From contig CAWDSQ010000007.1 of assembly GCA_963804955.1 (NCBI GenBank), forward strand, positions 32,001 through 96,000: 64,000 nt of DNA. Direction: 5' to 3'. Below are positions 14,324-56,001 of the stretch, one piece after another. The position numbers and the translations under genes were made by a program. Within the stretch, counting starts at the first letter, position 1. Every line of letters begins with the position of its first letter. The notes beneath the pieces are model-generated. The model ran no database searches. It was not told the DNA's origin and worked only from the letters and a program-made list of their open reading frames with translations. This stretch comes from an uncultured delta proteobacterium (GTDB taxonomy: Bacteria > Desulfobacterota > WTBG01 > CAIYCZ01 > CAIRTM01).

Positions 14324-14676
14324 CAATACTCCTTTCAAAAACATTCACCTTTTACCCTCTTTTTATTTGAATAACTTCGCATATCTGAACATTTGGCGAG
14401 TTATCAAATGAGAGAGAGGCACCGTAATAAATTTGTACTATATCGGCTTGGGGGGCTGAGTGTCAATATAAAATAATCAGTTAAAAAGACAAAATCATGC
14501 ATTTGGAGCTAATAAGCTGACGTTGCGTTTATTTATTATTCTGGGACCAAAACCAGTACAGCACCCGTAACGGCAATCCGGGCATCGTGGAACTCAACAC
14601 GAACGATCTCAGTACCATAAGCGGCACTACTTGTATTCGCAAACAACCTTCAATTGAAACGCACGAGCCTCACCAG

Positions 14677-14717
14677 AAAATAAGCCCCCGTGACAAACAT
14701 CGTCAGAGGGCTTATTT
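14677..14717 (-). terminator. Probable terminator at the end of the reductase/chelatase block
   Basis: AAATAAGCCC...GGGCTTATTT inverted repeat. Confidence 0.6.
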
Positions 14718-14739
14718 GATTTCTTGATAGCTTAAAACT

Positions 14740-15968
14740 TACTTCTTTACCGGCATGCTTCCAGTTGCTCAAGCACTCAGCTGATCATCATTCCATGCAC
14801 CCAGGTGCACTACGGGAATTGAAGAAGGCACTCCTGACCGGTCCACCATGGAACGGAATTTCATGCTCGCTGTGAATGCTCTCCGCGCTTATGTTGACGG
14901 CGAAACCAGTATCTTTTTGACGCCGCCGGCAAGTAGCCCCTGCACAGCGGCTGTATGTCCGGCTGCTTGAATTCCATATAGGCAAGAGCGATATGAGCTC
15001 TTTTAAAGCCTTCGGCCGCAAGCAGCTTTTTTGTTTCCAGCCGGAATGAGTTCTCCTGCTCGGGCTGTGTTTTAAATAAGGCGTCCCAGGATGCGGGCTG
15101 GCCATGGGCACCAGCAGAATGCCGATATCGGATTTGTCCATATCCACTGAGGCCCTGAGTGCGCGCTCGACGTTCATGCGCATCAGCCGCTGGAGTTTTT
15201 AGCGTATCCGTGAACGCACAGCTTCACGCCGTGTTTTTCAGGCTGCAGAGCTCGATCTCTTTCGGCCCATAGCGGAGTGATCCGAATCGGTAAGCCAGAC
15301 ATTGCGAAGTACACGCCGGTCAAGCCCCCTCATGTAAGGCGCGGGCTGCCGCGACATCGGCATGCTGGGCGTCGTTCGGAAGCGGCGATATGCACACGGG
15401 AATTGAGGATCGCACTTTTTCCGGTATAAAGCCTCGATCCGCTCCATGGATGCGTATTTCATGCGGTTATGAAAGCTCTCGGCGCTTAAATTGACCGGAT
15501 TCAACCAGGACTTTCTTGAAAAAAAACGGCCTGAAGGGCCAGGCACAAACGGCACGCCGGTTTCATCCGATTTCATGTCGGATGGCATGATTTCCATGCC
15601 GGCAAAAGCGCCATCGTACGTCTCTAAGGCTCGCCGTGGGTAAAACAGATGATGGCTGTATGCCCAGGCGATGTTGAGCGCACCGGCGCGGGCTGTTTTT
15701 CAAATACCGGCGTCCCAGGTACACGGGCAGGCGATAAGCTACCAGCGAATGCCGCACATCAGCAGAGCCCGAGTCCATAGTCACCTGCGGACCTTGATTG
15801 CAAGCTCGCACGATCATGCGCATCAGACGTCAGGAATTTTTGAGCGTATCGGAAACGCACAGCCGGCACGCCATATTGTTCAGGCTGCAATGCCTCGATA
15901 TCGTACTGCGAGACCCCTGCGACAAGGGAATAAACGCTGCAATCATACCGTATACAAAACCCCGACAT
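14740..15968 (-). CDS. Ferrochelatase-family (class II chelatase-like) protein, heavily frameshifted; start uncertain
   Basis: Manual frame-joining gives GHTAIICFTHGEP-ETY (~15665-15615), MKYASM, GILLV-HGQPASWDALFKTQPEQENSFR (~15125-15040), NISAESIHSEHEIP and LGAWNDD, in the order expected for ferrochelatase-like proteins. Confidence 0.65.
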
Positions 15969-16047
15969 TTAAAAGAATAAGGCGGTCAGTCGCCGTCCTG
16001 TACGGCGACTAAAGCGCCGCTCCTCCGTTAACATTCATAAATCGGTA

Positions 16048-16069
16048 GGGGCTCAAAATTTTGAGCCCC
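16048..16069. repeat. Perfect palindrome, GTAG-headed (REP-like)
   Basis: gta-GGGGCTCAAAATTTTGAGCCCC; a second hairpin AGTCGCCGT/ACGGCGACT lies at 15988-16010. Confidence 0.6.
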
Positions 16070-16082
16070 GGCATTGGAACCG

Positions 16083-16762
16083 TTACAATTTTATAAGAAA
16101 CTGCTCCGGCCTCTTGGACCGCGGCGCGCGCAACGACTTCAAAGGTGCGGTTCTTCATGGCCGGGTTCTCCAGGGCATCAACGCACACGCGGGCAATCTG
16201 CTCGCGCTTCACGCGGCCCGTGATCTTGCCGCCCTCGCCGAAGGCGACTTCATCAGGACTTTTACCTTCGTGTACCCGCCGGGCCGTATGATCGTGTAAT
16301 CGATCCCGCAGGACTGAATGAATGCCTCGCTCTTGTCCCTTGTGACTCAGCACGCTCATCATTGGCCATCTATACATGGGCGATACGGCATCGCGGCTGT
16401 TGCCAACCCCGACGGATGAAATGACAACGATCTGCTTGAGGCCCTTTGCCTTGGCGGCCCGCGCAAGGTTCTGGTTACCCATATTGTCGATCTTGTCGTT
16501 TTCCGACCCCTGAAGGGCTTTTTGGAGCCGATGGCGCTTATCATGTAGTGCGCGCCTTCCATGGCCTTCTCAAGAACGGCACAGAGGTAAGATCCCCTCA
16601 GCGCACGGTCTACACCCGTGAGGCCGCAGGTTGGAGCCGAGTCAAACGGCGGCACCATGAGGGCCCGCACCTTGTAGCCCCGCTTCAAAAGCTCCTGCAC
16701 CACCAGCCTGGCCTGTCCCTGCCGTGGCGCCTGCAACCACTACTGTTTTTTCACCGAGCCAT
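16083..16762 (-). CDS. Atypical SDR / NAD(P)H-binding protein, frameshifted
   Basis: Joined frames: KTVVVAGAT..G..RLVVQELLKRGYKVRAL, ISAIGS, DNMGNQNLARAAK..G..QIVVISSVG, REQIARVCV..NRTFEV; GGAGG RBS. Confidence 0.85.
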
Positions 16763-16858: not shown

Positions 16859-18586
16859 TTACATCCCAACTCTTTTCTGAACTCCTCCACCGTCGCGCCA
16901 ATGACAGTTATCCCGTGATTTGCCGCGGGCATAATCCTCGGTGCCGGAAACTGCGGCCTGACGGAAGGGCGACGGCACAAGCTCGAGCATGCCCTTTGCC
17001 TCGTCATCCCACGGCATGGTGAAGGTGAGGCTTGAGATCGGCACTTCTTCATCTTCTTCTGCGGCCGGGGGAGGTACTGCGTCATCGCCAAAGACAGCCG
17101 AAAACTTGGCCTTGAACTTGGTTGGCGTAAACTTATCGGATACTTCCCGAAAGATTGTTACCGTCACATTAGTGCCCCGCTCTTTGGCGATCTGCTCGGC
17201 AACGGAATGCAGCTTTTTTAGGGCTGTAGCACGCACGAAGTGCGGTATCATCTCGCCAACCTTTATCATGGCCTGCTCTGCCGCGATGTCCCAGGGCACT
17301 GAGCCCGTGGAGATGGAGCCCATCATATCGCCCTTGGTCTCAAGGAATATGCCCATATAGACCTCGTTCACCAGGCCCTCAACAAGGTACTTGGCGCCCA
17401 TAAAGCCCATAAACGGGCAGTTCTCCGAGCTCAAATACCCGATGGTGGGAATATCCGAGAAAATAAAATTTTTGAACCCCTCATCCATGCTCACTTTCTT
17501 ATCATAGAAGTTGCCATAGATTACCATGGGGCCTTTTTCAACGAACTTGTCGCGCTTCTCCTCAATGGTGGGGCATATGAGCACATCATCGCACAGGGCC
17601 TCGAGGCGCTTTGCCGCATCGTGGTTGCTCACCGCAGTCATGACGATGCCAACGCCCACCTCTTTATTCAAAAACTCGCTGATGCCCACGGCATAGGTGT
17701 TGGCATTTTCAAGTGACAATGCCGCGGTCATTTCAAAGGTGACGGCAAAGACCATATTTGACGAAATGAACTCGAAGGCATTGGCCATCGTTTCTTTCAG
17801 ATACGGCGTCGCATCGATCTTGAAAAAACCGGCGACGCTCTCAAGCCATGCCGCAGAATTCCCGAACCCGATGGGGATAATGTCCGCCATATATGGAATG
17901 CCGAAGCGTTTCTCCATTTCCTGAGCCACCCGCACACCGCTGTCATAGGGGTAGATGCAGAGATTGAGCTCTGCCTGCGCAGCATTTTTAATCTGGCCGA
18001 TGGTTGCGCCTGCAGTGTAGACGCAGTTGACGGTGACGCCGATGCCGGCGAGCATCCGCGTCAGCTCATACACGTCGGCGCGCCAGTTGAAGGTCGAAAA
18101 CGTTGGGCCGATGATGTTGACCGACCGGGGGACTTTTTTGACCGCCGGGTCGACAAGATCAAGAATGCGGATAAAGGCAGTCTCCTTGCCCTCCACAAGC
18201 GAACCGCCGATGGGCGGGTGGATAATGACAGTGTCTTTAAAGCCAACCTTCTTCACAATGCCTTCCACATCGTCGCGCGTCACCTCGACAGTGGGAGCGG
18301 TCACGATTAAAATTGCGCCGGGCTTTTTTGCCGCGATCTTCTCGAGCGTGGTCTCCATGCGGTCTTCGGCGCCCTGCATGATGTTGGCATACGAGAGGTT
18401 GGTCGAATACAGCTCGCAGGACCAGTCATTGACCAGGGCATTCACATGCTGGTTTATGTAGCAGCCCGGGGGCGAATGAAAGATGGTGTCCGCGCCCTTG
18501 ATGCCCAGGCAGGTCCAGAGAGCACCCTCAAAAGCCGAGGGAGTGTGCAGCTCCTGCATTTTGAAATCTTTTTGTGTCTCATTCAT
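16859..18586 (-). CDS. Nitrogenase component-1-like subunit (BchZ/BchB-like) with two C-terminal PCP_red domains
   Basis: HSPPGC, STNL, RSVNIIGP, AQAELN, PIG, PFMGFMGA; C-terminal PWD..A...P.FVR and PWDDEA..L..VP..FR repeats; indels near the 3' end. Confidence 0.85.
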   Translation of the reverse strand: MNETQKDFKMQELHTPSAFEGALWTCLGIKGADTIFHSPPGCYINQHVNALVNDWSCELYSTNLSYANIMQGAEDRMETTLEKIAAKKPGAILIVTAPTVEVTRDDVEGIVKKVGFKDTVIIHPPIGGSLVEGKETAFIRILDLVDPAVKKVPRSVNIIGPTFSTFNWRADVYELTRMLAGIGVTVNCVYTAGATIGQIKNAAQAELNLCIYPYDSGVRVAQEMEKRFGIPYMADIIPIGFGNSAAWLESVAGFFKIDATPYLKETMANAFEFISSNMVFAVTFEMTAALSLENANTYAVGISEFLNKEVGVGIVMTAVSNHDAAKRLEALCDDVLICPTIEEKRDKFVEKGPMVIYGNFYDKKVSMDEGFKNFIFSDIPTIGYLSSENCPFMGFMGAKYLVEGLVNEVYMGIFLETKGDMMGSISTGSVPWDIAAEQAMIKVGEMIPHFVRATALKKLHSVAEQIAKERGTNVTVTIFREVSDKFTPTKFKAKFSAVFGDDAVPPPAAEEDEEVPISSLTFTMPWDDEAKGMLELVPSPFRQAAVSGTEDYARGKSRDNCHWRDGGGVQKRVGM

Positions 18587-18587
18587 G

Positions 18588-19824
18588 TCAGCCTCCATAT
18601 TTCCGCACAAGGCCCTGCCAGGTTTCATAGACGGGCTTGTGCATGTTTTTGAAGAAATTAGTGCCAAGATCGATTGCATAATCGTAGCCGTACTCACACA
18701 GGTACAGCATGTTGATGAACGTGGGCACGAGGCGCGACACGCACTCGGGCTGTGCTTGAAATTCAACCGACACGGCCGTGGGCTTAATCCTGTCGATTAC
18801 GTCGCCGATCAGGTCGAAATCCTCCTCGATAAAGGTAACGCCGTAGCGCTCCTGCATGAGCTTTTTTTCCTGCTGGTAAAATTTATTCTTCATGGACGGC
18901 ACCACAAAAACCTCGGCGCCGAACTCGGCAAAAATCTTGCCGACTGACACTTCGTTTGCCGGTCCTGCCACCATGAGCATGCGGACCTTCTCTTTGGCAA
19001 AACGCTCCCGGATTTTCTCAAGCTCCGGCTTCACGCGCTTTTCCTCTTCATCCACAAGGTCATGCAGCTTTTGATTGTTCATCCTGTCGGCAATAGCGCG
19101 CAGGAAGTTTGACGTGCCCTGAATGCCCGTGGGAATCTCGATAAACTCAACCTCGCCGCCGAAGTTTTCATTCAGGTGCTTGCAGGTAAGCCAGGGTGTT
19201 ATGTGAATGGGATAAGTATTTTTCCGCGCAGACGATCTTAGCCATGCTGTCGATATGGGGCGTGGGAAAGACGAAGTACGGGATATCGGCCTTTTTGAAA
19301 AACATCTCAAGAGAGGCAAGATTGCCCGCGTCCTGGCCCGTGCGGCCGACAATGCCGATAGAGCCGGGCACCTTCTCCTGTTTCTCAAACGTGTCGAGCA
19401 CCGCAACCCAGGCGGCATCAGAGCCCAGGGGCATGGAGCGCGGATAGTTGAAACCGGTAAGGCAGGTGCTCACTTTCAGCTCCGGGATTTCCTTTTTGAG
19501 CTCTATGATAACGCCTTCAATATCCTCGCCGATAAGCTGGGGAATGCAGGTATTGATGATGACGATGACTTTAGGGTGATATTTGTTATAAAGGTTCTTG
19601 ACCTGCAGCTTTAGGCCTGCCTCGCCGCCGAAAATGACGTCGCTTTTGTTGACAAGCGTACCGGCAGTCACAAGCTGCGCCGGTCGGCATGACATGGAGC
19701 CCACCTGGTTCTGGTACGAGCAGGGCTGGGGCCCGTGCAGAAGCGGTATGACGCCTTCGATTTTGCCCAGGCTTGCCAGGGCCTGAATCGTGGAGCAGCA
19801 GTGTTCATAGTGTTTCAGGGGCAT
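18588..19824 (-). CDS. Nitrogenase component-1-like subunit (BchY/BchN/NifD-like), one frameshift near 19220
   Basis: HCCS, LHGPQPC, DVIFGGE, NTCIPQLIGEDI; the ORFs 19168-19824 and 18588-19418 join at an A-run; AGGAGG RBS; abuts the next gene's ATG. Confidence 0.88.
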
Positions 19825-19995
19825 AGGGACCTCCTAATGTAAATTCCTGATTTTGGATTGCCGTATTTTGCATCCCGCAGATGTATTCCTTTTTTTAGCG
19901 AAATCCGCAGCCCACCCTGCATGTTGTCGACCGATTTCAACCAGTGAAGAGCTTCGGCTAATCAAATAATTTTTATTCTGCGTCCTGCACTTGCT

Positions 19996-20848
19996 TCAGT
20001 GCTTCCTTCCCGCAGCCTGGGCCCACCAGGCATGGCAGCTCTTCAAAAGTGAACGACGCGGGCACGGAAAGTTCCTTGTTGTTCCAGATCGACTCTGACA
20101 ACTGCCGAAACGCCTCGCACTCGGCTGTATCTGGCGCATGCTGGAAGAGTGTCAGGCCCTTGCCGGAGCACTCTTTTATCTTTTCGCTGTAGGGAATAAA
20201 TCCGACAAGATGGCTGCCAAGCTTTCGGGAAAATTCATCCAGAATGGTCTGCTCATCCTTAAGCTCCCGGCCATTGCCGATAATGCCGCCGAGCCTGACG
20301 CCCGAACGGGAATTGAAGCGCGATACAGCCTTGCAAATATTGGAGGCGGCAAATAAAACCTCCAGCTCGCCGCTGCTCACGATATAGACCTCGTCGGCAT
20401 GGCCTTCGCGAATAGGCATGGAGAAACCGCCGCACACCACGTCACCGAGCACGTCATAGAGAACCACATCGAGCTTCAGAACCTCCATCACATTGAGATG
20501 CTTGAGCGCCTCTATGGCCTCCACCACCCCCTTGCCCCCGCAGCCAAGCCCGGGGTCAGGCCCGCCGCTTTCCGCACAGAAAATCTTGCCGGAGCAGGTA
20601 TCGTTGAGAGGGCTTTCAAACACCACCTCGTCCATGGTGAGGGATTTCACCTCAAAGTTCTTCTTCCGCAGAATCCCCAGCACTGTCTGGGGCATTTTGC
20701 CTTTCAGCAGCAGACGCGTGCTGTCATGCTTGGGGTCGCAGCCCACATGCAGAACCCTTAATCCTTTGGCCGCAAGGGCAAAAGTTATATGGGATGACAC
20801 CATGGACTTGCCGATACCTCCCTTACCGTAAATAGCTATCTGGCGCAT
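19996..20848 (-). CDS. Nitrogenase iron protein-like ATPase (NifH/BchL/BchX family), copy 2
   Basis: YGKGGIGKS, GCDPKHDS, ESGGPDPGLGCGGKG, DVLGDVVCGGF; an indel near the 3' end makes the likely true terminus ...AWWAQAAGRKH*. Confidence 0.93.
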
Positions 20849-21052
20849 AGTGAGACCTCTGTGATATTTGTTGTGGCGAATTTCTTAATTATTCGTTCAG
20901 AAAATTTTGTTGGGTTCGCCCTGTTACAGCAGTTTTTTCACCATCACCTGATTTTTTGCCGGTGGGATTGAGTAACAGAGGCAACATTTTTGTCCGGGCT
21001 TAACCCAACCATCTAGAATGCTAAAAAGGTTGTCGGCATTCACGCCTGCCAG

Positions 21053-21892
21053 CTAATTTATATACGGCAGCCACCAGTCATAGAGCTCTTCAAACTCAAG
21101 GGTATTCGGAATGACAAGATTTTTATTGTCAAACACCTTCTGCCCGATCTCGCGGTAGAGATTCGCCTCCGGCGAATCCGGCGCGCATTGAAACACGGTT
21201 TCGCCATCGCCGCCGCATTGCTTCACGGTCTGGCTGTAGGGAATGACGCCCACGATCTGCGTGCCGATCTTTTGAGCAAAATCAGTCACCATCTGAAGTT
21301 CATTCTTCACGCGTCGCAGGTTAACGATGAGCCCGCCGAGCTTTGAGCCGGCCCGAGCGTCAAAGCGCTTGATTGCCTTTGACACATTGCTGACTTGATA
21401 GAGCGCCTCGAACTCGCCGCTGGTCACCACATAGGTTTCCTGCGCAAAGCCCTGGCGTATGGGCAGGGAAAAACCGCCGCAGACGACATCGCCCAGGATG
21501 TCATAAATAACGACATCGATATCAAGGGCCTTGAATATACTGAGTTTTTTTATCGTGTCGATGGCTTCAACCACGCCCTTGCCGCCGCAGCCCACCCCCG
21601 GCTCGGGCCCGCCGCTTTCAGCGCAGTAGATTTTGCCGCCGTTTTCAAACTGCAGGGGCGATGTGGTGATGATGTCCTCGGGAGAAAGGTCGTCGTACAT
21701 GAAATCATTTTTGCGCAGCACGTCAAGAATCGTGGGCGGAAAGTCAGGCAGCAGAAGGTAGGTGCTGTCATTTTTCGGGCTGCAGCCCATCTGCAGCACC
21801 TTCATTCCCCGCTCGGCAAAAGTGTAGGATAGATGGGATGCAACCGTCGACTTCCCTATGCCGCCTTTACCGTAAAGTGCTATCTGCCGCAT
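21053..21892 (-). CDS. Nitrogenase iron protein-like ATPase (NifH/BchL/BchX family), copy 1
   Basis: YGKGGIGKST, GCSPKNDS, ESGGPEPGVGCGGKG, DILGDVVCGGF; AAGGAGG RBS. Confidence 0.93.
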   Translation of the reverse strand: MRQIALYGKGGIGKSTVASHLSYTFAERGMKVLQMGCSPKNDSTYLLLPDFPPTILDVLRKNDFMYDDLSPEDIITTSPLQFENGGKIYCAESGGPEPGVGCGGKGVVEAIDTIKKLSIFKALDIDVVIYDILGDVVCGGFSLPIRQGFAQETYVVTSGEFEALYQVSNVSKAIKRFDARAGSKLGGLIVNLRRVKNELQMVTDFAQKIGTQIVGVIPYSQTVKQCGGDGETVFQCAPDSPEANLYREIGQKVFDNKNLVIPNTLEFEELYDWWLPYIN

Positions 21893-21910: not shown

Positions 21911-22384
21911 TTATAATGGACAGCGACATCGTTTCATAATTGAGCTTGCGGCGCGCAGCGATTTCAGCAGGCGCGTACGCTGCTTTTCGTCAAGACAACC
22001 AAAAATATTCATCAGCTCCTGCTTACGCGCCTTTAAAATACTGCCGTGAGCTTTTTTCCCGCTGTCTGTCATCTGCACTTTAACGACCCGCCGGTCACCC
22101 GTGTCGCGAATGCGCTCGACAAAACCCTCGTCAACGAGCCTGTCGACGACCTCTGTCATGCAGGGCATTTTCACATTGGCGATTTTGCACAGCTCGCCCA
22201 TGCTGTAGCGCCGGTCTTCATGAAAGGCCGACATAGCCTTGAGCTGCGAGCTGTTGACCGGGAACCCCATCAGCCCCTTGCTGCTCATAACCATTTGCTG
22301 AAAAAGGTCCGTAAAAAGATTACGGATCTCGATTAAATGCATTTCTATTTCGGTAAGCTCACTGAGTTGCTTGCTGTCCCCCAC
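21911..22384 (-). CDS. MarR family transcriptional regulator
   Basis: MTEVVDRLVDEGFVERIRDTGDRRVVKVQMTDSG wing motif. Confidence 0.92.
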   Translation of the reverse strand: MGDSKQLSELTEIEMHLIEIRNLFTDLFQQMVMSSKGLMGFPVNSSQLKAMSAFHEDRRYSMGELCKIANVKMPCMTEVVDRLVDEGFVERIRDTGDRRVVKVQMTDSGKKAHGSILKARKQELMNIFGCLDEKQRTRLLKSLRAASSIMKRCRCPL

Positions 22385-22747: not shown

Positions 22748-23218
22748 CTAGGGCTTGGTTGTCTTCTTTAATATGCCCGAAACTTTTCGCAAGGCCGTGA
22801 GCAGTTCATCCTGATCCTTCTGTGAAAGTTTGCCAAAAAGATTGCCCATTTCCTCACGGCGGCGGCCTATGAACTTGTCGTGAATCTTTTTGCCCGCATC
22901 CGTCAGCGCCACTTTGACCACGCGGCGGTCCTTGGTGTCGCGCACCCGCTTGAGCAAGCCCTCGGACTCGAGCCGATCTACCATCTCGGTCATGCTGGGC
23001 ATCTTCACCAAAGCGTTCCTGCTCAGCTCCGTCATACTGTACTCGCGGTCTTCGTGAAATGCGGTAAGCGCCTTCATCTGCGAAAGCGTTACGGACATAT
23101 CGCTTATACGGCGGCTGCCCTTGACCATTTTGTTGAATATCTGCACGAAAAGGTTGCGCACCTCTATCATGTGTTCTTCAATCTCAGTGACTTTTTCCAT
23201 AAAAACCTTATTATCCAT
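22748..23218 (-). CDS. MarR family transcriptional regulator (paralog)
   Basis: MTEMVDRLESEGLLKRVRDTKDRRVVKVALTDAG. Confidence 0.92.
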   Translation of the reverse strand: MDNKVFMEKVTEIEEHMIEVRNLFVQIFNKMVKGSRRISDMSVTLSQMKALTAFHEDREYSMTELSRNALVKMPSMTEMVDRLESEGLLKRVRDTKDRRVVKVALTDAGKKIHDKFIGRRREEMGNLFGKLSQKDQDELLTALRKVSGILKKTTKP

Positions 23219-23257
23219 ATGCGGCCTCATTTTAGAATTTTTAATATTTCATTTCCT

Positions 23258-54879: not shown

Positions 54880-54907
54880 AGATGCGGCTTAACTTCGGAG
54901 AACAAAA

Positions 54908-56001
54908 ATGATAAAATTTCCAGTTTATCAACCATCACTGACCGGCAATGAAAAAAAGTATGTCAATGAGTGTTTGGATTCCACCTGGATTTCGTCTAAA
55001 GGCAAATTCGTTGTAGAATTTGAAAAGAAATTTTCACAGTTTATAGATATTAAGCACGCAACCACCGTCAGCAACGGGACTGTTGCCCTGCATCTTGCCC
55101 TTTTAGCTTTAGGCATAGGCGATGGTGATGAGGTTCTTGTTCCGACACTTACTTATATCGCCTCGGTTAATGCTATTGCCTACACCGGCGCTACTCCTGT
55201 TTTTGTCGATTCATTAAGTGACACCTGGCAGATTGATCCTGCTGATGCAAAAAAGAAAATAACGCCAAAAACAAAGGCCATTATGGCTGTGCACCTTTAT
55301 GGGCACCCCTGCGATATGGATTTATTAGCAGCGGTCGCAAAAGAGCACAATATTTTTCTTATAGAAGATTGCGCCGAGGCTTTGGGCACGCTTTACAAGG
55401 GAAAGCATGTTGGCTCTTTCGGCAACATATCGACATTCAGCTTTTTTGGAAATAAAACCATAACAACAGGCGAGGGCGGTATGGTTGTCACCAACGATGA
55501 AACGCTCCATGACCGTGCCATTCATTTTAAGGGTCAAGGGCTCGCAAAACACCGCGCAGTACTGGCACGATGTTATCGGTTACAATTATCGCATGACCAA
55601 TATCTGTGCGGCAATAGGAGCTGGCACAGCTTGAGCAGGCTGATTTTTTTATTGAAAAAAAAAGAGAAATTGCAAAATGGTATAAACTATTTCTTAAAGA
55701 TATCCCGGTAGAAGTTCATAAAGAAGTTGGCAATATTCGGCATTCATATTGGATGGTTTCTTTGCTTGTTGAAAATCCTTCGCAAAGAGAGCCTCTTAGG
55801 GAGCATCTTGAACGTAATGGCATTGAGACCCGACCTCTTTTTTATCCGGTTCATACCATGCCGATGTATTCCTGCAAATACCAGAAACATGCTGTTGCTG
55901 AAGATCTTGGCTGGCGAGGAATGAATCTGCCAAGCTACCCCGGGCTCAATAAAGAGGATGTTGCGGAAATAGTCCAGCACATAAGAGAATTTTTTACATA
56001 A
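54908..56001 (+). CDS. DegT/DnrJ aminotransferase, GDP-perosamine synthase-like (indels near 55555-55625)
   Basis: WISSKG, NGTVALHLAL, EDCAEA, SFFGNKTITTGEGG, GIETRP, NLPS. Confidence 0.88.

Follow-up and report, generated by a model that had tools for sequence, protein, structure and literature searches.

Tandem NifH-like Fe proteins with an asymmetric switch I in a Desulfobacterota genome: a candidate heterodimer with a hydrolytic and a binding-only ATP site

Can two unlike Fe proteins serve as the two subunits of one ATP-driven electron donor? The question is raised by two adjacent genes, H1 and H2, in a stretch of 64,000 nucleotides (nt) from an uncultured delta proteobacterium (contig CAWDSQ010000007.1 of assembly GCA_963804955.1, positions 32,001 to 96,000; hereafter the window). 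Characterised Fe proteins are described as homodimers that spend two ATP per electron, and a 2026 review lists it as open whether newer systems adhere to this rule (PMC13474568). H1 and H2 both encode NifH-like Fe proteins, and the switch-I Asp of the PF00142 family (Asp39 of Azotobacter vinelandii NifH, whose numbering is used for conserved positions below) is present in H2 only and replaced by Ser in H1. On comparative sequence grounds, H1 and H2 probably form a heterodimeric Fe protein in which one ATP site hydrolyses and the other only binds. The features concerned are as follows:

21053-21892, minus strand: H1, NifH-like Fe-protein paralog, 279 amino acids (aa), GCSPKNDS, intact
21779-21781, minus strand: Ser38 codon AGC of H1, counterpart of A. 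vinelandii NifH Asp39
19996-20848, minus strand: H2, NifH-like Fe-protein paralog, GCDPKHDS; as assembled, the open reading frame (ORF) runs to 19973

Both proteins matched Pfam PF00142 over their full length, H1 at E 2e-86 (290.3 bits) and H2 at E 7e-91 (304.8 bits), against a cut-off of 25. The original prediction, made from the letters of the window, had described tandem Fe proteins that keep the P-loop and both cluster Cys and differ at switch I. The profile and the motifs bore this out, with GKGGIGKS, MGCSPKNDS, GCGGKG and DVVCGGF in H1 and GKGGIGKS, VGCDPKHDS, GCGGKG and DVVCGGF in H2. The deviant Walker A motif GKGGIGKS with its signature Lys10 is thus shared by both, and apart from the Ser, H1 retains the P-loop, Lys10, Lys15, Ser16, Lys41, Asp43, switch II and both cluster Cys. 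Lys at the position of NifH Arg100 and the segment KI(Y/F)CAESGG were also found in the two copies, as predicted, at an overall identity of about 52%. The Ser codon had been placed near 21782-21784; it is indeed AGC and lies at 21779-21781, the former triplet being the TGC of the preceding Cys. Both proteins scored below the cut-offs of the NifH equivalog TIGR01287 (H1 300.5 and H2 296.2 against 394.35), CfbC NF033200 (297.4 and 295 against 402), BchL TIGR01281 (208 and 218 against 345) and BchX TIGR02016 (176 and 183 against 331). The closest solved structure to H1 was 9fmg_D (E 1e-71), which is MarH of methylthio-alkane reductase (PMC13474568). A family search of the source genome (4.26 Mb in 36 contigs, 87% complete) recovered no further NifH-family gene above the cut-off, and judged by H1, H2 and their partner genes the organism is predicted not to be a nitrogen fixer.

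The pair was then sought in other genomes. Among 61 relatives searched, an H1-type gene was present in 20 genomes, the window's own included, at 71-100% identity, and a second match of 51-58% identity lay directly downstream in 20 of 20; a twenty-first genome (G016) held fragments of both genes. All 19 relatives' loci that were read, spanning genus to class, carried GCSPKNDS in H1 and GCDPKHDS in H2 in unchanged order, one of them (L024) with an internal TGA in H1. Such a pair of Ser- and Asp-bearing copies is what the original prediction proposed to look for in homologous loci. In an even sample of the phylum, H1 occurred in 8 of 401 genomes with H2 adjacent in 8 of 8, and H1 without H2 was found neither in the 61 relatives nor in the 401-genome sample. 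A search of genome contigs for related loci returned 8 close loci, and the named sources were all metagenome-assembled genomes (MAGs), from Desulfobacterota/Thermodesulfobacteriota, Spirochaetota and Gammaproteobacteria. That the Ser is a sequencing error, or peculiar to this genome, was ruled out by the orthologs, on which confirmation of the codon rests: every ortholog has Ser, and GAY to AGY takes two base changes.

Both genes are under strong purifying selection. Ortholog identity ran in step (72-96% for H1 and 71-95% for H2), and dN/dS was 0.04-0.07 for H1 and 0.02-0.05 for H2 (Nei-Gojobori script, four closest comparisons). All 96 H1 sequences in a set chosen by the GCSPK motif kept Lys10, Lys15, Ser16, Lys41, Asp43, Asp125 and Cys97, and 95 each kept Asp129 and Cys132; in the H2 set, Lys10, Cys97 and Cys132 were kept in 27 of 27. 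GCSPK was read in 77 of the best 120 database proteins, and all 72 P-loop-bearing matches of at least 67% identity carried it except P0077 (GCDPKNDS). An H1-type branch at 55-63% identity had GCDPK, GCDPQ, or GKGSIGKS together with GCDPM. Across 140 domain rows from the unbiased search of 50%-cluster representatives, 132 had Asp at the switch-I position and 1 had Glu; the remaining 7 had Ser, each of them in a paired or fused clade.

To place the two copies, H1 was searched against 1.84 billion cluster representatives, multi-domain matches were split into domains, and trees were built with FastTree (166 rows) and with IQ-TREE (81 rows selected from these, with the P-loop and switch-I columns removed). 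In both trees the H1-type clade (support 97) was sister to the H2-type clade (98) with a joint support of 98, apart from rows labelled NifH, CfbC, PRK13230 and BchL by NCBIfam, in agreement with the earlier suggestion of sister paralogs. D39S, K41Q and K41M (the last with GKGSIGKS) fell on separate branches of the H1-type clade, some H1-types (P0077, P0081, P0082, P0084 and P0095) had a canonical switch I, and H2-type rows were canonical GCDPKHDS in 8 of 8. Together these patterns point to duplication first and then repeated alteration in the H1 lineage alone. In a gammaproteobacterial branch (P0086-P0118) the H1-types keep Asp39 and have Lys41 changed to Gln, or to Met plus GKGSIGKS, and their partner is a canonical H2. 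One gammaproteobacterial MAG (L031, 237-1944) showed H1 (GCDPQADS), H2 (GCDPKHDS) and a D-like gene, in that order. The K41Q-type pair was found at E 1e-85 in 1 of 401 Gammaproteobacteria sample genomes, the seed genome alone.

A second clade, separate from that of the window, joins the two types in one chain. The top representative matches carried two NifH domains in 571-596 aa, the first half reading GCSPK and the second GCDPK, and such fused chains of about 584-600 aa occur in many independent assemblies and phyla. The double-NifH fusions are real: one cluster at 90% identity had nine full-length members (584-589 aa) and another had ten (596-598 aa), from different assemblies. The first and second halves formed two sister branches (supports 85 and 95), and unfused members also lie within this clade, among them a pair in L034 with the Ser-type upstream and the Asp-type downstream, behind D- and K-like genes. 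A search with P0128 returned about 100 clusters from Thermodesulfobacteriota, Chloroflexota/Dehalococcoidia, Binatia, Myxococcales and others. Of 116 proteins, 97 with two full domains and fewer than 700 aa were kept, the 19 dropped being fragments, single-domain proteins and larger fusions. The residues in the N-terminal and C-terminal halves (N-half and C-half) were as follows:

Lys10: N-half 97 of 97; C-half Lys 39, Thr 47, Asn 11
Lys15: N-half 97 of 97; C-half 97 of 97
Ser/Thr16: N-half 97 of 97; C-half 97 of 97
Position 39: N-half Ser 96, Asp 1; C-half Asp 97
Lys41: N-half 96; C-half 97
Position 43: N-half Asp 39, Ser 43, Asn 15; C-half Asp 97
Cys97 and Cys132: N-half 97; C-half 97

The 58 proteins without Lys10 in the C-half were exactly the 58 without Asp43 in the N-half. 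Lys10 works across the interface, on the nucleotide bound by the other subunit, and NifH with D43N binds ATP and does not hydrolyse it (both from PMC13474568). Given this action in trans and the D43N phenotype, every lost residue falls within one composite site, made up of the N-half in cis and the C-half Lys10, while the residues that make up the other site do not vary. The complementary loss would leave one intact site when an N-half pairs with a C-half, and none when like pairs with like.

The Ser appears to have arisen separately in the two clades. Ser codons of the window clade were AGC in 26 and AGT in 4 locus rows (about 20 genomes, several loci having been fetched twice), while those of the parallel clade were TCA, TCC or TCG (3 locus rows); AGY in one clade against TCN in the other agrees with two Ser origins. 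Forcing the 17 Ser rows into one group, whose membership was set by motif once a first tree was in view, cost 119.5 log-likelihood units, and their single origin was rejected in the approximately unbiased (AU) test (p 0.001). The convergence of both lineages on Ser itself suggests that Ser was selected rather than tolerated, and both also converged on Ala versus Ser at position 18. By analogy, the window pair would be the first step of the path seen in the fused clade, with Ser39 in the upstream copy and the binding residues, Lys10 and the four Cys all kept. Arg194 of H1 and Glu195 of H2 are conserved in the window clade and are Gly in both halves of the fused clade; one idea is that they form a putative cross-interface charge pair.

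The constant pairing of H1 with H2, the switch-I changes confined to H1 and the fused Ser/Asp clade with its complementary loss favour the heterodimer, which the original prediction had offered beside a regulatory paralog and which the sequences support better than that alternative. H1 and H2 would be two unlike subunits of an ATP-driven one-electron donor to a D/K reductase resembling dark-operative protochlorophyllide oxidoreductase (DPOR) or chlorophyllide oxidoreductase (COR), with one [4Fe-4S] cluster bridging Cys102/Cys138 of H1 and Cys103/Cys139 of H2. Each subunit would bind nucleotide. The H2 site, built from its own P-loop and switches with H1 Lys9 reaching across the interface, would hydrolyse normally, and the H1 site, with Ser for the switch-I Asp and its binding residues kept, would bind ATP and hydrolyse it poorly or not at all. 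ATP would be needed at both sites for the conformational switch, about 1 ATP would be spent per electron, and docking of the heterodimer on the D/K pair would have a fixed orientation. The genes, their motifs and conservation, the trees and the fused forms with complementary loss are observed; that H1 pairs with H2, that its site has lost hydrolysis and that about 1 ATP is spent are inferred. A linked single-chain BchL dimer was as active as wild type and became inactive when one half could not bind ATP (PMC7948495). This result fits the model, since the natural Ser-types keep the binding residues and lose the catalytic ones.

Several observations weigh against the heterodimer. G008, a 95% complete genome of the same family and a sister genus, carries at L041 (G008:C88, 2924-7143) the order D-K-H with a single H2-type gene, which is nested in the H2 clade (94/93), and a whole-genome family search of G008 found no H1. 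H2-type proteins can presumably act as homodimers, so that "obligate" is too strong a word for the pair. Degeneracy is likewise not a defining feature of the pair, given that canonical H1-types exist. The H1-H2 spacer measures 204 nt in the window; among relatives it spans 15-404 nt, two of them having about 400 nt, and a gap of 204 to about 400 nt means no translational coupling. Ser might still permit slow hydrolysis. The window clade, as compared here, shows the D39S step only and keeps both Lys10, and the argument from complementary loss is thus drawn from a different clade, where the loss in 58 sequences, which form one tree clade, may be a single inherited event, though one that has held across 49-100% identity.

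These observations bear on two other arrangements. H1 and H2 could form two separate homodimers, H2 being the working donor and H1 a non-hydrolysing protein such as a helper in cluster insertion or maturation, or a regulatory lock on D/K. NifH has maturation roles that are independent of ATP hydrolysis, and Asp39 variants form tight complexes; the lone H2-type gene with D/K in G008 and the varied H1-H2 gaps are also what separate homodimers would allow. We nevertheless regard this as unlikely: H1 keeps the trans-acting Lys10 with its nucleotide and cluster residues, and in an H1 homodimer Lys10 would serve dead sites only; no searched genome has H1 alone; and the parallel clade fuses both types, where like-with-like pairing leaves no intact site. 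Alternatively, H1:H2 and H2:H2 dimers could coexist, H1 tuning ATP cost or docking without being obligatory. The single H2-type gene of G008, the H1-types with a canonical switch I, and the sharing of cluster and P-loop elements by proteins that are only half identical would suit such a mixed population. Strict 1:1 retention from genus to class and equally strong purifying selection on both genes speak against it, and it seems to us improbable.

With the heterodimer as the preferred reading, a wider claim can be made, which we advance tentatively and hold slightly more apt to fail than to stand: Fe proteins with a single hydrolytic site arose independently at least twice, as a two-gene heterodimer and as a single-chain pseudo-dimer, one site being made binding-only stepwise through Asp39 to Ser and then the loss of Asp43 and of the partner's Lys10.

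The pair belongs to an operon-like row on the minus strand, in which two MarR genes, H1, H2, a D/N-like gene and a K/B-like gene follow one another. The further members are as follows:

22748-23230, minus strand: second MarR-family regulator
21911-22384, minus strand: MarR-family regulator directly upstream of H1
18588-19824, minus strand: D/N-like catalytic subunit (Oxidored_nitro), split into two ORFs in the window
16859-18598, minus strand: K/B-like catalytic subunit with a C-terminal PCP_red domain

The row is interrupted by single-nucleotide indels, which were compared with the contigs of relatives. As assembled, H2 occupies an ORF at 19973-20848 of 291 aa that lacks the WW and has FEELPCLVGPGCG towards its end, its frame being shifted by an extra C at about 20034-20036. 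The contig X4 of a relative has one base fewer at 20036. The other frame gives the tail FEELHAWWAQAAGRKH followed by a stop at 19996-19998 and agrees with the orthologs. The segment FEEL..WW, which had been reported in both copies, holds for H2 only once this frameshift is undone and is missing from H2 as assembled. The D-like gene has a 1-nt insertion at about 19213 relative to the 96%-identical ortholog in L025 and is intact (411-421 aa) in five relatives. Two X2 contigs end at 19212 and resume at 19214 within it, and X1 gives no cover at 19203-19505. The site reads TTAT in the window, TAT in L025 and TTT in a relative's contigs, and TTAT suggests a consensus error where the sequence varies. 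In the K-like gene a +1 near 16905 and a -1 near 16862 (both within the last 47 nt, compared with L025) leave the final 16 residues shifted. A NAD-binding gene downstream of it (16009-16736) is split, and so is an unrelated DegT aminotransferase gene 35 kb away (54893-55708 and 55618-55998); five of the six 1-nt indels lie in or beside the cassette.

These indels are probably long-read consensus errors of the assembly. Frameshifted H2, D and K could also mean a decaying copy rather than mis-assembly, which would tell against a working heterodimer here. In its full form this alternative holds that the Ser is an error, or that in the source genome H1, or the operon as a whole, has become a pseudogene; it would predict indels such as those seen in H2, D and K and in the NAD-binding gene downstream. 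We consider it very improbable, as the Ser of every ortholog needs two base changes and dN/dS is about 0.05, while H1 itself is intact, the distant DegT gene is split likewise, and the D-gene site, TTAT where relatives have TAT or TTT, has the look of a consensus error.

The cassette H1-H2-D-K was kept in all five larger contexts, with varying flanking genes and with a MarR gene ahead of it in L025, L039 and L040. A scan for promoters and terminators gave counts no higher than in shuffled sequence. The K-like subunit aligned best with BchB (E 2e-18) and has Cys in place of the BchB cluster ligand Asp36, the arrangement proposed for BchZ of COR (PMC13474568). The D-like subunit has, by alignment, three Cys at the cluster positions of NifD/BchN, and both subunits fall far below the BchN, BchB and BchZ cut-offs. 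The partners may thus be inferred to form a [4Fe-4S]-only, DPOR/COR-like reductase. The likeness to DPOR (BchNB) and COR (BchYZ) lies in the BchB resemblance, PCP_red domain and one ligand position of the K-like subunit and in the three Cys of the D-like subunit; the difference lies in the scores and in the Cys that replaces BchB Asp36. No tetrapyrrole genes were seen near the cassette in the window or in the relatives' contexts, and since only the four-gene cassette, often with MarR, is conserved, the context gives no substrate.

In L036 (2801-12213) and L035 (7346-11315), fused double-NifH genes lie beside genes of acyl-CoA metabolism (3-hydroxyacyl-CoA dehydrogenase, enoyl-CoA hydratase, AMP-forming CoA ligase, aldehyde dehydrogenase and ferredoxin), and in L036 D/K-like genes are also adjacent. 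This hints that the nitrogenase-like reductase of the fused clade acts on a CoA thioester and not on a tetrapyrrole. Other NifH-like duplications have both halves canonical, GCDPK/GCDPK (P0124, P0127, P0134 and P0405-P0408); they occur as tandem genes (L033, 5837-7557), as fusions, and as triple fusions involving a component-1 domain (about 950-1080 aa). A NifH-like domain opens many representatives that are about 700 aa long.

Elsewhere in the window, 27000-63000 is a polysaccharide-biosynthesis cluster with a chain-length regulator/tyrosine kinase, sugar transferase, epimerase, GT2 enzymes, carbamoyltransferase, DegT and acetyltransferase; its GC content of 0.36-0.42 at 44-60 kb suggests acquired DNA. 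The 1.6 kb or so at 14400-16000 had no convincing ORF, no Pfam match and no Rfam match at gathering or E 0.1, and neither a tandem repeat nor a plasmid match was found there.

The pair was compared with known systems. Homodimeric NifH, MarH, CfbC, BchL/ChlL and BchX belong to the PF00142 family like H1 and H2, and have in common with them the Lys10-bearing deviant Walker A, both switches, a pair of Cys in each subunit that holds a bridging [4Fe-4S], and D/K-type partner genes in the operon. A laboratory-made heterodimeric Fe protein of A. vinelandii was reportedly the subject of a paper by Chan and co-workers in 2000. ArsA, the arsenite-pump ATPase, resembles the fused relatives in having two deviant-Walker-A halves in one chain, and its two sites are non-equivalent; it has neither a bridging [4Fe-4S] nor a D/K partner and matched H1 only weakly, over the P-loop. 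Some fused relatives carry the NCBI name "ArsA-related P-loop ATPase". The BchL "DFD patch" motif was absent from the two BchL representatives checked.

Described Fe proteins are one-gene homodimers with two equal ATP sites (PMC13474568), whereas here there are two diverged genes. The linked BchL dimer with one K44A half (PMC7948495) is a laboratory construct in which one half lost ATP binding and activity was abolished, unlike the natural Ser-types, which keep the binding residues. A KoNifH-NifH fusion with an ArsA linker (PMC13385145) is also a laboratory construct, reported to be soluble and, by the title of the paper, functional, and resembles the natural fused chains. Full-text literature searches and a targeted look at the 2026 nitrogen-fixation-like (NFL) review turned up homodimeric natural Fe proteins and engineered asymmetric ones, but no heterodimeric or fused Fe protein from nature; the supplementary gene maps of Elusimicrobia Group VI, which might show paired nifH, lay outside that scope.

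The current labels of these proteins, "nitrogenase iron protein NifH", "AAA family ATPase" and "ArsA-related P-loop ATPase", carry the risk that they are miscounted as nitrogen-fixation markers. If the heterodimer is real, it would provide natural material to dissect each ATP site, one of which seems to bind ATP without hydrolysing it, including single-chain versions with a further-degenerated dead site. It would also allow a test of electron gating at half the ATP cost and of the way in which a symmetric donor is fitted to a D/K partner that is asymmetric. Should the wider claim of two independent origins hold, two ATP per electron would be no mechanistic necessity of this enzyme class and about 1 would be achievable.

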